Part shown: one piece after another, positions 1,587 to 6,974 of the stretch | How positions within the stretch are numbered: position 1 is the first letter of the stretch | Layout: each line of letters starts with the position of its first letter | DNA from: an uncultured archaeon | GTDB taxonomy: Archaea; Asgardarchaeota; Heimdallarchaeia; Heimdallarchaeales; Heimdallarchaeaceae | Assembly: GCA_964549075.1 (NCBI GenBank) | Contig: CAZJUB010000048.1 | Location: forward strand, 1 to 19,312 | Reading direction: 5' to 3' | DNA length: 19,312 nt | Made by a program: the position numbers and the translations under genes | Notes under the pieces: model-generated | The model's database searches: none | Seen by the model: the letters and a program-made list of their open reading frames with translations, nothing else | What the model was told of the DNA's origin: nothing

Positions 1587-3155
1587 TTGGGTGCTAAAAC
1601 TGATAACTCAACTACAAAATACGAAATTCGTGCATCCTTCGAAATTGATGGTGTTGTTGAAAAACCTGATATTATTGGAGGAATCTATGGACAAACGGAT
1701 GGATTATTAAGTGAAAATCTAGATATCCGTGAACTTCAAAAAACAGGTAGAATTGGAAGGATAAATGTTGAACTTCACAGTGAAGGAGGAAAAACTTCTG
1801 GAAGAATTTTCATTCCAACAAGTTTATCACGTATGGAAACAGCTATTTTAGCTGCTACTCTTGAAACAGTTGATCGTGTGGGTCCATGTAGCTGTGCTGT
1901 AAAACTTGATGAAATTGTAGATGTAAGAATTAATAAACGTCAAAGTATAGTGGATCGTGCTTCTGAGATAATTAGGCAATGGGATCAAAAAGTAAGTCCA
2001 TTTTCTAGTAGTATTAGTTCAGAAGTAGAAAAAACTACTAAGGCAAGTCAGGTATTAAGCATAAGTGATGAAGGATTTTCTGCAGGACCTGGTTTTGAAA
2101 ATCAAAAGAAAATAATTCTTGTTGAAGGTAGAGCTGATGTAGTCAACCTACTAAAATATGGTATTGATAACACAGTCGCAGTAAATGGAACAAGTATTTC
2201 TCCAGAATTAGTTAAATTAATCTCAAAGAAAACTGTAACTGCGTTCTTAGATGGAGATCGGGGAGGAGATCTTATTCTAAAGGAACTCCTACAAGTTTCC
2301 CATGTGGAATATGTTGCTCGAGCTCCACTAAAAAAAGAGGTGGAAGACCTAAATCAAAAGGAGGTTACAGAAGCTTTAGAGCATGCTGTCCAGTTAAACG
2401 ATGCAGTATTCCTTACAGGAAAAGATGCAGAAATTACAGTTAAAGAATTTCTTGAAAAAAGCAAACCTCAGAAGAAAAGGCTTCGATTCGGATCTAAGAA
2501 AACAGAGATAACTAAAAAAGAGACAACCAAACAGAAAGATACAGGTATTAAAATTATAAAACCAGCATTACCTTCAAAAAAGCCTGAAGTTAAAAAAACT
2601 AAGCAAAAAGCAGTAAAAACTGAAAAAGACGTTGAAAAGGAGAAAATTCCAAGTAAACCGGTTTCAACCAAACCAGTAGTGTCTGCACAATCGACTCCTG
2701 CTAGTAGAACAACAACTCAAAAAAGACCTCCAAGTAGACCTTCAGGTAGACCTCCAGGTAGATCTCCAAGTAGGTCTTCTTCAAAAAGACCTTCGAGTAG
2801 CCATTCTAGCAGAACCAGTACTCGAACCAGAACTTCAAGACCTCCAAGAAGAGAAATCCGAAAGGTCGAGTTACCTGAATATTTATCAAACGCTGTTAAG
2901 GAAATCAATACTAAATTGGAAGCAATAGTTTTTGATGAAGCAGATAAAGAGATTATGAGAAGCTCTGCTGCTGAAGCTTTCGATAATCTTGGTAAAATTA
3001 AAGAAGGTAAAGTACTCGTAATAGACGGAGTAATGACTCAAAGATTACTTGAACGATCTAAGGAAAAAGGGATCACTACTGTAATTGGAGCACGAAAAGG
3101 AGAAATATCTAAAAAACCAACTAACGTTAAAATAATTGAATTTAAGAACGTTTAA
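1587..3155 (+). CDS. dnaG: Archaeal DnaG (TOPRIM primase-like, exosome-associated) with a long basic low-complexity insert
   Basis: N-terminal GVVEKPDIIGGIYGQTDGLL...LRELQKTGRIGRI-type motif; TOPRIM motifs IILVEGRADV and FLDGDRGG; TTG start with SD AAGGTGA at 1573-1579. Confidence 0.95.
   Translation: MGAKTDNSTTKYEIRASFEIDGVVEKPDIIGGIYGQTDGLLSENLDIRELQKTGRIGRINVELHSEGGKTSGRIFIPTSLSRMETAILAATLETVDRVGPCSCAVKLDEIVDVRINKRQSIVDRASEIIRQWDQKVSPFSSSISSEVEKTTKASQVLSISDEGFSAGPGFENQKKIILVEGRADVVNLLKYGIDNTVAVNGTSISPELVKLISKKTVTAFLDGDRGGDLILKELLQVSHVEYVARAPLKKEVEDLNQKEVTEALEHAVQLNDAVFLTGKDAEITVKEFLEKSKPQKKRLRFGSKKTEITKKETTKQKDTGIKIIKPALPSKKPEVKKTKQKAVKTEKDVEKEKIPSKPVSTKPVVSAQSTPASRTTTQKRPPSRPSGRPPGRSPSRSSSKRPSSSHSSRTSTRTRTSRPPRREIRKVELPEYLSNAVKEINTKLEAIVFDEADKEIMRSSAAEAFDNLGKIKEGKVLVIDGVMTQRLLERSKEKGITTVIGARKGEISKKPTNVKIIEFKNV
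2724..2783 (+). repeat. Degenerate in-frame 12-bp tandem repeat within dnaG (R-P/S-P/S-S/G units)
   Basis: agacctccaagt agaccttcaggt agacctccaggt agatctccaagt aggtcttcttca encodes RPPS-RPSG-RPPG-RSPS-RSSS. Confidence 0.8.
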
Positions 3156-3322: not shown

Positions 3323-4390
3323 GTGACTATAGATGAAAAGGTTAAACTGGTAATTAAAAATACTGAGGAAGTGATTCTTAAATCTGAAATACGAGATTTA
3401 ATAGAGAAAAAGAATAATCCTAGAACATATATCGGTTTTGAGTTGTCTGGCTTAGTACATTTAGGAACTGGAATTGTATGTGGCAATAAGATAAAAGACC
3501 TTATCAAAGCTGGTTTTGAAACTATTGTATTTCTAGCAGATTGGCATAGTTGGATAAATAACAAACTTGGAGCAGATATGGAAAAGATTCAACTAGCTGG
3601 AGAATATTTCAAAAAGGCTTTCGAATCTGTAGGTGTCAAAGGACCTAGAGTAAAATATATCTGGGGATCTGAATTAGCAGAAAAGGTGACTTACTGGGAA
3701 AAAGTTGTGAGAATAGCAAAATCTAACTCTTTAACAAGAGTGTTAAGAACTTTACCTATAATGGGTAGAAAGTCTGAAGGCGACCTTGAATCTGCTTTCT
3801 TGTATTATCCCGCAATGCAGGTCGCTGATATCTACGATATGGAAATTGATTTAGCTTACGGTGGTATGGATCAACGAAAAGCTCACATGCTTGCGCGTGA
3901 TACTGCTGAAAAACTTGGAAGAACCAAACCTGCCTGTATTCATACCCCTCTCTTAACTGGTTTACAAGGTTTTGGTAGAAAAATGGATTCTGAATCAAAA
4001 CCTGATCTTGCAGAACAAATAGATGTTAAGATGTCTAAATCAAAACCAGAAACATGTGTTTTCATACATGATACAGAAAAAGAGATTTTCGAAAAAACTA
4101 CAAAAGCTAATTGTCCTGCAAAACAAGTGATAGCAAACCCCATTACTGAAATCGTCCAGTATATCCTTTTTGATGTTTTTAACGAAATTAAAATTGAACG
4201 GGATGCAAAATATGGTGGTGATTTAATCTACCATACCTTCAAATCTTTCAAGGAAGATTATGAAAAAGGTGAGATTCATCCTCAAGACCTAAAGATTAAT
4301 GTTGCAAGATTATTAAACCAGCTTTTGACACCTTCACGAAAATACTTTGAAAAACATGAAAATCTTATAGAAGAAGTTAAAAAACTCTGA
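3323..4390 (+). CDS. tyrS: Tyrosine--tRNA ligase (archaeal/eukaryotic type)
   Basis: YIGFELSG..HLGT (HIGH-like), LADWHSWIN, YPAMQVADI, GGMDQRKAHMLARD and KMSKS motifs; GTG start with SD GAGGTG. Confidence 0.96.
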   Translation: MTIDEKVKLVIKNTEEVILKSEIRDLIEKKNNPRTYIGFELSGLVHLGTGIVCGNKIKDLIKAGFETIVFLADWHSWINNKLGADMEKIQLAGEYFKKAFESVGVKGPRVKYIWGSELAEKVTYWEKVVRIAKSNSLTRVLRTLPIMGRKSEGDLESAFLYYPAMQVADIYDMEIDLAYGGMDQRKAHMLARDTAEKLGRTKPACIHTPLLTGLQGFGRKMDSESKPDLAEQIDVKMSKSKPETCVFIHDTEKEIFEKTTKANCPAKQVIANPITEIVQYILFDVFNEIKIERDAKYGGDLIYHTFKSFKEDYEKGEIHPQDLKINVARLLNQLLTPSRKYFEKHENLIEEVKKL

Positions 4391-4406
4391 TTTCTTCTTT
4401 TTCTTT
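4391..4406 (+). terminator. Probable oligo-T terminator after tyrS
   Basis: tttcttctttttcttt directly follows the stop codon. Confidence 0.45.
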
Positions 4407-4419
4407 AATAGTCTTTGAC

Positions 4420-4433
4420 AAAAAAGTTCAATA
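4420..4433 (+). promoter_or_regulatory. Candidate BRE/TATA promoter for the ncRNA
   Basis: Purine-rich AAAAAAG followed by TTCAATA (4427-4433), about 25 nt upstream of the first hairpin at ~4454. The TATA match is imperfect. Confidence 0.4.
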
Positions 4434-4452
4434 CCATTCATACGATAGTAAT

Positions 4453-4672
4453 GTGCCTTTATCGAGGACTTTCTAGAGATGGCAAGAGCTAACAAGGAAA
4501 GAAAGTGCAATAAAAAGGCAAAAGACTACCAACGGGCTCCTATGGAGTAGAGTAGGACTCTACACAATGAAGTAAGGGCAACCCTGGTAGACAACAGTTG
4601 CTCCTGAGGAGCTCAACTAACTGATATGGGAAAATCCCTAAATATGATGTTTAGAGTTAACCTCAGGAGCAT
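4453..4672 (+). ncRNA. Putative three-hairpin box H/ACA pseudouridylation guide RNA
   Basis: HP1: lower stem gccttt(4455-60)/aaaggc(4514-19); pocket atcgagg / gcaa; upper stem actttct(4468-74)/agaaagt(4500-06); K-turn AGA...AAG-GAA; then AAAAGA (ANANNA). HP2: ctacca(4526-31)/tggtag(4585-90); pocket acgggc / gcaaccc; K-turn GGA...AAU-GAA; apical gtagagt/actctac; then ACAACA. HP3: tgctcctgagg(4599-4609)/cctcaggagca(4661-71) with a C/D-type K-turn CUGA(4621-24)...UGAUG(4645-49). The HP1 and HP2 pockets match recalled archaeal 23S PTC sequences. Confidence 0.8.
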
Positions 4673-4736
4673 TATTTCTGTTTTAAGATGAAAACATAAA
4701 AAATAAATAATGATTCAATAATCTTCCCGTGTTTAT

Positions 4737-4815
4737 GGGGCAGTGATCTAGCCTGGTCTATGATGCCGCTCTCACACAGCGGATGTCGCAGGTTCAAATC
4801 CTGCCTGCCCCACCA
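4737..4815 (+). tRNA. tRNA-Val (anticodon CAC), intronless, CCA encoded
   Basis: Acceptor stem GGGGCAG/CTGCCCC, D arm with G15 and GG, anticodon arm CCGCT-CTCACAC-AGCGG, T arm GCAGG-TTCAAAT-CCTGC, discriminator A plus CCA. Confidence 0.97.
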
Positions 4816-5316: not shown

Positions 5317-6297
5317 ATGAACCTAGAACCTTCCTCTAAACAGAATAATTTTGTTGATTTATTCTCTGGTGCAGGAGGTTTTAGTCTAGGATTTAAAATG
5401 TTAGGGTTTCATGATTTACTTGCTATTGAGCAGAATGAAACTGCAGCTAATACATATAAACTGAATTTTCCAAGCTCACCTATTATTTTAAATGATATAA
5501 GAAAAATCCATGGTTTGGAAATTATCGAAAATGTACAAGATAAGATAGATGTAGTATTAGCATCTCCACCTTGTGAGCCATTCACATCTGCTAATCCTCG
5601 AAGGATGAAAACACCTTGGGAAAGATTCTATCAAGATCCACAAGGTGATTTGATATTTCATGCCATAAGAATTATTAGTGATCTAGAACCTGATTTTTTC
5701 GTTATTGAAAATGTCATCGCAATAGCTGAAGAAGAATCACAAAACATAATCAAAGATGAGCTTGGCACTATTGGATATGAAAAAATTTATTTTAATTTCG
5801 TCTCTGCAGAGAAACATGGTTGCCCAAGTGTTAGGAAAAGAGTTTTTATATCAAATCTTAAATTTCAATTACCATTTCGTAGTGAAATTACGGTAAAGAA
5901 TGCCATATATAGCTTACCTTCCCCATCCTATCCAAATGATTATCAAGGACATTTTACCCTTCCTTTTGCTAAACAAGCAGAGAGAAAAGCGCTCAAAATA
6001 AGAAAAGGAGACGCAGCAGTTCATTTTAAAGGTGCAAAAGGGGAATTTCAAAACTGGATAAAACTTGACGAAAATGATGTTTGTCCTACCGTAATGGGAA
6101 AATCAAGATTCATTCACCCTACTGAGAATAGACCTTTAACAATACGCGAACATGCAAGACTACTTAGCTATCCTGATACTTTTCATTTCTTGGGTTCTGT
6201 AGAGGAAATGTTTAATCAGGTAGGAGAATCAGTCCCTCCAGTAGTTTCTAAAGGAATTGCAGAAAAAATAAAAAATAAGATTAAAGAAAAAGAATAG
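5317..6297 (+). CDS. C5-cytosine methyltransferase (Dcm family, archaeal orphan type resembling MJ0563)
   Basis: Motif I DLFSGAGG, IV SPPCEPFT, VI ENV, VIII PSVRKRVF, IX RPLTIREHARL, X QVGESVPP. Confidence 0.92.
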   Translation: MNLEPSSKQNNFVDLFSGAGGFSLGFKMLGFHDLLAIEQNETAANTYKLNFPSSPIILNDIRKIHGLEIIENVQDKIDVVLASPPCEPFTSANPRRMKTPWERFYQDPQGDLIFHAIRIISDLEPDFFVIENVIAIAEEESQNIIKDELGTIGYEKIYFNFVSAEKHGCPSVRKRVFISNLKFQLPFRSEITVKNAIYSLPSPSYPNDYQGHFTLPFAKQAERKALKIRKGDAAVHFKGAKGEFQNWIKLDENDVCPTVMGKSRFIHPTENRPLTIREHARLLSYPDTFHFLGSVEEMFNQVGESVPPVVSKGIAEKIKNKIKEKE

Positions 6298-6302
6298 GGA
6301 TT

Positions 6303-6974
6303 CTAGATGGAAGTAAAAACTTCTCCCAAGCTTGAAAATATCAGCGCCAGGGGTACATCTAGAATGTTGTGAAAAGTTTTACGAGCTTTTCTAATTGAAA
6401 ATAAATCAGATGTGGAGAAGATTTTACCGTTTTTATTTACAGCTGTAAAAGAATCTTTTGCAACCCAAATAAGACGATTTTCTCCTTTGCGAGCAATTAT
6501 CTCTTCTTCTCCCACCATAAATGTAGAGTCTTCATTGATAAACCATAGAGATGTGGAGTTATATGTTTGTATCATTATACTTTCCTTTTCGTCATATCTG
6601 ATATAATCTGCTCGTTTAATCTGATGTTTGTATTTTCTAACAATCTCTTCATACAACTCTGTTTCTTCTAATGGCGGGATTTCTTTCACTTGATCTTTGG
6701 TAAGGAAAGGAAGTTGAACGGGGAAAAGAAGAGCAGTTGAATAAGTGTCCTCTATAATCTCCCCTACAGCTCCTTTTGCGGTATGAACAAGTAAATCAGC
6801 GATTATCCCTGTGGGACCATCAAGTAGAAAACCTATCTGTCGGTTTTGGTTTTCATCAAAAACTGGTAGAAGTATGGAATTTTTAGATATAGAAAGTTTC
6901 ACATGTCTGTTATCAAATGTATATTCAAAACTATGTGTTGTTTTCAAAGGTCTGTTTTTTACAATTAATCTCAT
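6303..6974 (-). CDS. Hypothetical beta-rich protein, last gene of the ArsR operon
   Basis: 223-aa ORF with SD GGAGG upstream, 17 nt after the ArsR stop codon; no motif recognised. Confidence 0.7.
   Translation of the reverse strand: MRLIVKNRPLKTTHSFEYTFDNRHVKLSISKNSILLPVFDENQNRQIGFLLDGPTGIIADLLVHTAKGAVGEIIEDTYSTALLFPVQLPFLTKDQVKEIPPLEETELYEEIVRKYKHQIKRADYIRYDEKESIMIQTYNSTSLWFINEDSTFMVGEEEIIARKGENRLIWVAKDSFTAVNKNGKIFSTSDLFSIRKARKTFHNILDVPLALIFSSLGEVFTSI

Follow-up and report, generated by a model that had tools for sequence, protein, structure and literature searches.

The window analysed here is the whole 19,312-nucleotide (nt) stretch from an uncultured Asgard archaeon. Its tyrS gene (3323-4390), which encodes a class-I tyrosyl/tryptophanyl-type transfer RNA (tRNA) synthetase (Pfam tRNA-synt_1b), is followed on the same strand by a tRNA-Val(CAC) gene at 4737-4815, and the spacer between the two holds a structured element that matches the Rfam box H/ACA family RF00064 as well as R1, a covariance model that we built from 27 copies of the element. 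We put the probability at about 0.9 that this element, at 4453-4673 on the plus strand, is an independently transcribed three-motif box H/ACA guide small RNA (sRNA) and the Heimdallarchaeial orthologue of HgcG/Pab40/Pf7/Afu4. What is new is an unannotated, conserved RNA in Asgard archaea; its family and architecture are known. We infer the exact RNA ends. The features of the spacer, including a kink-turn (K-turn) and a two-sided guide pocket in each hairpin, are as follows.

4417-4434 (+): conserved promoter-like block, GACAAAAAA[G/C]TTCAA[T/G]A, ~20-35 nt ahead of where the RNA begins
4453-4673 (+): predicted three-hairpin box H/ACA guide sRNA gene, HgcG/Pab40/Pf7-type orthologue, placed by the RF00064 and R1 matches and by conservation
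4454-4520 (+): hairpin 1, with lower stem 4454-4460/4514-4520, upper stem 4468-4474/4500-4506 and apical stem 4478-4493
4461-4467 (AUCGAGG) and 4507-4513 (GCAAUAA) (+): hairpin 1 pocket, from pair counts and conservation
4475-4477 and 4494-4499 (+): hairpin 1 K-turn, with A4475.A4499, G4476.A4498, A4477.G4497 and a 3-nt bulge at 4494-4496
4521-4523 (+): hairpin 1 ANA box, AAA in this genome, 14 nt downstream of the pocket top and abutted by the lower stem of hairpin 2
4524-4592 (+): hairpin 2, with lower stem 4526-4531/4585-4590, extended by 4524-4525/4591-4592
4532-4538 (ACGGGCU) and 4578-4584 (GCAACCC) (+): hairpin 2 pocket
4539-4543/4572-4577 (+): upper stem of hairpin 2, with one bulge; apical stem at 4547-4553/4557-4563
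G4545 A4546 / G4569 A4570 (+): hairpin 2 K-turn
4594-4596 (+): ACA box of hairpin 2, 14 nt downstream of A4580, the base with which guide pairing to the predicted target begins
4600-4670 (+): hairpin 3, with a 10-bp lower stem 4600-4609/4661-4670 and apical GGG/CCC 4628-4630/4636-4638
4610-4616 (AGCUCAA) and 4655-4660 (AGUUAA) (+): hairpin 3 pocket
4617-4621/4649-4654 (+): upper stem of hairpin 3, with U4652 bulged
G4623 A4624 / G4646 A4647 (+): hairpin 3 K-turn
4671-4673 (+): 3' tail where the ANA box of hairpin 3 is expected; reads AUU, 15 nt from G4656
4675-4684 (+): T-rich tract UUUCUGUUUU, likely an archaeal transcription stop for the sRNA

Homology, fold and conservation

At gathering thresholds an Rfam scan of the window listed the tRNA alone. 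A permissive scan of 4380-4740 returned RF00064 (HgcG, which is Pab40/Pf7/Afu4) at 4399-4678 on the plus strand with 52.0 bits and an E-value of 1.7e-13; the alignment is full-length (model positions 1-276) and the three hairpins match the three model motifs one to one. The score is sub-gathering, so standard annotation would miss the RNA, and we treat it as a divergent RF00064 homologue, not a formal Rfam member. An initial annotation, made from the sequence alone, had described an unannotated multi-hairpin box H/ACA guide RNA and suggested both an Rfam search and a covariance model from relatives. The full-length match and the covarying fold described below bear out that description. As the Rfam match is itself to an H/ACA family, the class is confirmed but the novelty is gone. 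According to the available excerpts of two earlier reports, Pab40 is the same RNA as HgcG and RF00064 (PMC4652768), and Pab40, Pf7, Pho40 and Afu4 are three-motif H/ACA sRNAs of Pyrococcus and Archaeoglobus (PMC2377435).

The RNA is widespread among close relatives of its host. The closest named tyrS records, with identities from 81% downwards, come from Candidatus Heimdallarchaeota metagenome-assembled genomes, in agreement with the Asgard host initially suspected. A DNA search found the RNA in 24 of the 25 genomes of the genus (own genome included) at 73-100% identity, and the left edge of similarity falls exactly at window position 4454; within the family, 29 of 30 other genomes carry it. 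R1 matches the window at 4453-4676 with 246 bits, and across the class 51 of 83 genomes gave a full-length match. Broken down by family, matches were obtained in 28/30 genomes (f1), 19/22 (f5), 2/2 (f6) and 1/12 (f3, a partial match only), and in 0/1, 0/3 and 0/12 for f2, f4 and f7. Under strict filters R1 matches 32 of 151 genomes sampled across the phylum. RF00064 itself recognises a same-genus copy at an E-value of 4.4e-11 and three of 14 distant Asgard copies at E < 0.01 (best 1.7e-10). A prefiltered genome search with RF00064 gave no hit in the own genome and a hit in one of 41 relatives; its initial filter passes over this RNA, which the direct scan does recover, and these blanks carry no weight.

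On the plus strand the spacer folds into three consecutive hairpins (4454-4520, 4524-4592 and 4600-4670). In each of them a two-sided internal loop separates the lower from the upper stem, and a GA/UGA K-turn signature sits beneath a small apical stem, much as the initial annotation had drawn it. The single-sequence fold reaches -71.3 kcal/mol (z -3.67), which none of 200 shuffles equalled. The minus strand folds about equally well (z -4.0), so energy is no guide to strand; the plus strand is assigned because of the Rfam and model hits, the order of the boxes and the many G-U pairs. Alternation between Watson-Crick and G-U pairs is frequent in the stems (e.g. CG in 17 and UG in 9 copies, or UA in 16 and UG in 8) and is compatible with the plus strand only.

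We tested the structure on the 27-copy alignment, with controls in which the 3' partners were slid by 1-3 columns and with 500 shuffles. The three-hairpin structure leaves 93.0% of 1480 cells paired, and 28 of its 57 pairs change on both sides, compared to at most 53.9% paired cells and at most nine such pairs in the slid controls. None of the 500 shuffles matched the observed value on four of five measures, while 56 did so for the fifth, 'further pair types'. An alignment restricted to the genus gives 94.5% paired cells and both-side changes in 11 of 55 pairs. RNAalifold independently yields the identical three hairpins, with 24 of 51 pairs compensatory. Changes on both sides affect seven of the eight pairs of helix 4, which is the lower stem of hairpin 2, three pairs each of helices 5 and 6, and three of the five pairs of helix 8 in hairpin 3 (CUAAC/GUUUAG vs CUGGU/ACCAAG); helix 7, also in hairpin 3, is 97.7% paired.

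The pocket strands behave differently from the stems. Hairpin 1 retains AUCGAGG in 26 and GCAA in all 27 copies, hairpin 2 retains ACGGGCU in 26 and CAACCC in all 27, and hairpin 3 keeps GCU (4611-4613) and GUUA (4656-4659) in every copy amid flanking pocket letters that vary. Covarying stems around near-invariant pocket strands are the pattern expected of guides that are held constant by an invariant ribosomal RNA (rRNA) target. The 3'-strand K-turn letters (G4497 A4498, U4568 G4569 A4570 and U4645 G4646 A4647) are likewise invariant in all 27 copies; the 5' GA is kept in 24, 19 and 27 copies for hairpins 1, 2 and 3, with A4546 alone invariant in hairpin 2. By our count, hairpins 1, 2 and 3 have GA stems of 10, 9 and 9 layers. 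The archaeal rules, as given in the excerpts available of PMC4652768 and PMC7075261, place the ANA box 14-16 nt from the pocket top and allow GA stems of 9-10 layers, and the geometry found here fits them, with distances of 14 nt to the boxes of hairpins 1 and 2 and of 15 nt to the place where the box of hairpin 3 is expected.

Two other readings were rejected. The Rfam alignment gives hairpin 2 an additional stem-loop, GCUCC/GGAGU, and this fold clashes with the covarying apical stem at 4547-4563; a C/D-box interpretation of hairpin 3 (CUGA ... AUGAUG) has the boxes in the wrong order and finds conservation only at the GA and UGA.

Elsewhere among the Asgard archaea other arrangements occur. 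Some lineages, one family among them, carry a 164-nt version with only the hairpin 1 and hairpin 2 types, as in genomes G100 and G119 (L175:101-264 and L177:101-264; 3' guide UCAACCC), other lineages separate the hairpins by 17-18 nt linkers or by inserts that reach ~130 nt, and variable hairpin forms were also seen in G049 and G110. Hairpin number and spacing thus vary across Asgard lineages, as they do in Euryarchaeota.

Predicted rRNA targets

The own genome contains a 4235-nt large-subunit (LSU) rRNA on contig C65, while its small-subunit (SSU) rRNA was not found. We therefore scanned the own LSU rRNA and the SSU rRNA of genome G001, of the same genus, for U-N flanked by complements of the two pocket strands, and converted positions to Escherichia coli numbering via a computed alignment to annotated E. 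coli 23S rRNA. For hairpin 1 the best predicted site is LSU 3642, UUGC[U]A CCUCGAUG, which is E. coli 2496 (4+8 pairs). Hairpin 2 best fits LSU 3731/3732, GGGUU[U]A GACCGUU, equivalent to E. coli 2585/2586 (5+6 pairs); its target is foremost 2586 (LSU 3732) and possibly 2585. The best site of hairpin 3 is LSU 2699, UAAC[U]A UGAGCUU, which corresponds to E. coli 1915 in the loop of helix 69 (4+7 pairs). All three sites are identical in the four LSU rRNAs examined from the family. The SSU rRNA of G001 offered no good site for any hairpin.

These are the sites of the Pf7 family. The consulted part of PMC2377435 gives 23S 2588 as the target of Pab40 motif 1 and 2016 in stem-loop 69 as that of motif 3, and expects the true target of Pf7/Afu4 motif 2 to be Pab 2678, a position pseudouridylated in Haloarcula marismortui; the excerpt seen of PMC2584109 equates H. 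marismortui 2621 with E. coli 2586 and 1956 with E. coli 1915. The spacing from Pab 2588 to 2678 is 90 nt, the same as from E. coli 2496 to 2586. By prediction, then, the three motifs address the Pf7/Pab40 target sites in the order I-II-III.

Judged from sequence, the RNA most likely guides pseudouridine formation in LSU rRNA. Each hairpin would bind one set of Cbf5, Nop10 and Gar1 plus L7Ae. L7Ae would occupy the K-turn, and Cbf5 would contact the lower stem and ANA box through its PUA domain. The internal-loop strands would pair with LSU rRNA on either side of the unpaired U-N, and Cbf5 would convert the unpaired U to pseudouridine. Of the corresponding genes, a Cbf5-type synthase with DKCLD, TruB_N, TruB_C_2 and PUA domains, Nop10 and two L7Ae-family genes were found in the own genome.

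The own LSU gene (C65:1287-5521, L025) is itself interrupted. A ~155-nt insertion at LSU ~3746-3900 lies directly after the equivalent of E. coli 2600, between GUGAGA and CAGGUUGG; G009 has an insertion at this place too, G005 and G045 have none, and it is probably an rRNA intron. A second insertion of ~680 nt lies upstream of helix 69 and carries a 185-aa open reading frame (ORF; L025:3282-3839, LSU 1996-2553) with a LAGLIDADG_3 domain (E-value 8.7e-12). By its sequence features this is a homing-endonuclease intron. Helix 69 stands at ~2696 in the own LSU rRNA and at 2014-2018 in three relatives.

Boxes, flanking elements and alternative explanations

The initial annotation read AAAAGA (4520-4525) and ACAACA (4591-4596) as ANANNA H boxes in eukaryote-like hinges. 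Both hexamers are literally present, but ANANNA is kept in only 3 of the 27 copies at the first place and in 11 of the 27 at the second. What is conserved is plain ANA: 4521-4523 is ANA in 27/27 copies (ACA 12, AUA 8, AAA 7) and 4594-4596 in 27/27 (ACA 26, AUA 1). The triplet 4591-4593 is variable (ACA/UCA/GAU/GCU/ACG/GCA) and together with 4524-4525 lengthens the lower stem of hairpin 2. The caveat that the hexamer might match partly by chance was well placed, as ANANNA occurs 1692 times on both strands of the 19.3-kb window, at ~4% of positions or about one in 23; in such an A-rich window, once ANA is given, the extra A adds little information.

The same annotation proposed that the RNA might be intermediate in architecture between the H/ACA sRNAs of archaea and the small nucleolar RNAs (snoRNAs) of eukaryotes, combining ANANNA hinges with K-turn hairpins. 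The two hexamers in this genome and the Asgard host speak for this, as does the role of internal ANA boxes as H-box equivalents in archaeal multi-hairpin guides, described in the available part of PMC7075261. However, beyond the poor conservation and high background frequency of ANANNA, hinge 1 is just the 3-nt ANA box: in the alignment, AAAA at the end of hairpin 1 faces 'aACA' in the Euryarchaeal HgcG consensus, which is laid out alike, with the next lower stem following directly in both. The consulted section of PMC7075261 also describes K-turns together with an internal ANA box, called 'H box' (AUAGCU), in sR-h45 of Haloferax volcanii, so that the combination is a Euryarchaeal feature already described and neither Asgard-specific nor a transition state. 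Taking in also the orthology with Pf7/Pab40/Afu4 and the same predicted targets in the same order, we regard an intermediate as very improbable.

Several observations nevertheless weigh against the identification of a three-motif Pf7-type guide. The RF00064 score of 52.0 bits is below the curated gathering cut-off of 77 bits. Complementarity alone is not significant, as 2/30, 30/30 (for contiguous pairing) and 4/30 shuffled LSUs score at least as well for hairpins 1, 2 and 3; we therefore base the target calls on their agreement with the published Pf7/Pab40 sites and on conservation. In its best pairing hairpin 2 has an internal G.A mismatch, RNAalifold shows that the pocket of this hairpin can self-pair (GGG/CCC), and a rival site exists at LSU 4020, which we set aside as its sequence occurs in only two of four LSUs, whereas the guide does not vary. 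For hairpin 3 a site at LSU 2082 scores equally well; it was rejected because it lies inside the own-genome-specific insertion with the LAGLIDADG ORF, which is missing from three other LSUs, judged by the position of helix 69. Hairpin 3 also has no canonical ANA box in this genome (AUU). Gar1 (PF04410) was not found in the own, 89.7%-complete genome; it was found in five of five relatives. SSU rRNA is present in 10 of 24 other genomes of the genus, and we consider the Gar1 and SSU rRNA gaps most likely to be assembly gaps. As to expression, two metatranscriptome runs each yielded one short contig, of 190 and 167 nt, from a relative 95-99% similar; both fall wholly within 4477-4667, and nothing matched tyrS, the spacers or the tRNA. 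Two further RNA runs (X21 and X23) gave no contig on this stretch, which is not evidence of absence. The two contigs hint weakly at a discrete small RNA in a close relative; neither the ends nor the strand of a transcript can be read from them, and carried-over DNA could account for them.

Some of these points raise the question whether only some hairpins are active, hairpin 2 being a closed structural stem or directed to another target, and hairpin 3 disabled or atypical with its ANA decayed to AUU. The self-pairing, the mismatch and the rival site at LSU 4020 would suit such a reading, and according to the part of PMC2377435 consulted, motif 2 of Pab40 in Pyrococcus abyssi is weak and shifted in specificity. 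The tail at 4671-4673 reads AUU in 13 copies, AUA in six, ACU in three, ACC in two and otherwise in three, so that ANA is present in just 6/27; homologues in another family have UACAGA or AACAGA there. Yet the pocket strands of hairpins 2 and 3 are near-invariant between covarying stems, exactly 14 nt separate the conserved ACA of hairpin 2 from the guide base pairing beside E. coli 2586, and hairpin 3 pairs in the typical UN mode. Since it pairs with U1917 and leaves only U1915-A1916 free, hairpin 3 could tolerate the loss of its ANA. Partial activity thus appears doubtful to us, though it is a reading with some substance.

The position of the RNA between tyrS and tRNA-Val on the same strand could instead suggest a cis element, either a structured 3' untranslated region or terminator of tyrS or a leader of the tRNA-Val transcript. 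In 18 of 80 named-record tyrS loci, all with tyrS at least 61% identical to that of the window, the RNA does lie ~65-85 nt downstream of tyrS. The other 62 loci have no copy downstream, though the RNA is found elsewhere in several of those lineages; their tyrS genes show 48-54% identity. The one exception is L055, with 71% identity and a locus that stops 8 bases past tyrS. Other Asgard families have the homologue either between genes for PheRS-beta and a Trm5/TYW2 methyltransferase or between cytidylyltransferase-like and Toprim-domain genes, in both cases with no tRNA nearby. Promoter-like blocks separate the RNA from tyrS and precede the tRNA, and the RNA is homologous to a family of trans-acting guides. 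We accordingly give almost no credence to a cis role and favour a separately transcribed guide.

The initial annotation had noted a candidate promoter and a T-tract, and both proved to be conserved features, with functions that we infer. In a flank-including alignment of 21 copies (A1) the block at 4417-4434 is nearly invariant while columns 4435-4452 are variable, and it may be a promoter of the B recognition element (BRE)/TATA type. T runs occur at 4675-4684 in relatives too, and the tract likely terminates transcription of the sRNA. A second conserved A/T-rich block at 4693-4712 (CAGAAAAAATAAATA in most relatives) precedes tRNA-Val by ~25-40 nt and probably serves the tRNA as a promoter of its own, so that the two blocks look like two separate archaeal promoters. 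A sigma-70 promoter and intrinsic terminator scan was set aside, as it has no bearing on archaea.

Of the neighbouring genes, a C-5 cytosine DNA methyltransferase gene (5317-6297, plus strand; Pfam DNA_methylase, E-value 1.4e-48) lies directly downstream of tRNA-Val and is followed by a 223-aa ORF (6303-6974, minus strand) without a Pfam match; the two could be a restriction-modification or mobile cassette beside a tRNA gene. Upstream of tyrS the window carries a gene for a Toprim-domain protein (1587-3155, plus strand). A Toprim-domain gene (L188:2394-3677, minus strand) also adjoins the homologous RNA in genome G065, of another family, and this shared neighbour may be a remnant of synteny.

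Relation to known guide RNAs

The closest known counterparts are HgcG/Pab40/Pf7/Afu4 of Methanocaldococcus, Pyrococcus/Thermococcus and Archaeoglobus. They share with the window RNA three tandem H/ACA motifs that combine a K-turn or K-loop with an ANA box on the 3' side, an internal ACA followed directly by the next lower stem, and the target order I Pab 2588 (E. coli 2496), II E. coli 2586 and III E. coli 1915. The window RNA differs in being AT-rich, at 52 bits against the 77-bit cut-off, in having AAA instead of ACA as the box of hairpin 1 and AUU as the terminal box of hairpin 3, and in its host, a Heimdallarchaeial Asgard archaeon. Haloferax sR-h45 also has K-turns and an internal ANA functioning as 'H box', and its Pf7 stem II/III homologues guide E. 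coli 2586 and helix-69 1915/1917 (available portions of PMC2584109 and PMC7075261). It has only two hairpins, with a 56-base spacer between them and no stem I homologue, and in its 3' hairpin UNUN stays unpaired and two uridines are modified, whereas hairpin 3 of the window RNA pairs with U1917 and is predicted to direct modification at 1915 only, as for Pab40.

Eukaryotic H/ACA snoRNAs, such as yeast snR191 and human U19 for helix 69, have in common with the window RNA the Cbf5/dyskerin enzyme family, the pocket logic and the n+15 rule, and the helix-69 pseudouridines are conserved targets (consulted part of PMC7075261). They differ in consisting of two hairpins without K-turns and with an ANANNA H box in a single-stranded hinge, whereas the window RNA has three hairpins, a K-turn signature in each and no conserved ANANNA. 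The counterparts of the E. coli 1915, 2496 and 2586 sites are modified in eukaryotes too, according to the excerpt of PMC2377435. Literature searches on H/ACA RNAs in Asgard archaea turned up no paper on the subject among the records listed.

A more far-reaching scenario would have the tri-hairpin Pf7/HgcG-type RNA predate the split between Asgard archaea and Euryarchaeota, survive in the line that led to eukaryotes and be ancestral to the eukaryotic snoRNAs for helix 69 and the peptidyl-transferase centre, with internal ANA boxes ancestral to the H box, and hairpin 3 in this genus a working ANA-less (AUU) guide via typical U-N pairing. We hold this to be unlikely as a whole and offer it as speculation.

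The Pf7/Pab40/HgcG family thus reaches well into the Asgard archaea, and R1 could be used to annotate copies that the Rfam cut-off misses. If our reading is true, one RNA guides modification of the E. coli 1915, 2496 and 2586 sites, at the subunit interface and the peptidyl-transferase centre, in Euryarchaeota and Asgard archaea alike, and this shared guide would be a concrete anchor for tracing the origins of snoRNAs. The finding shows no transitional architecture; its value lies in extending a deeply conserved guide, along with the rRNA sites that it most likely directs, to the archaeal lineage closest to eukaryotes.

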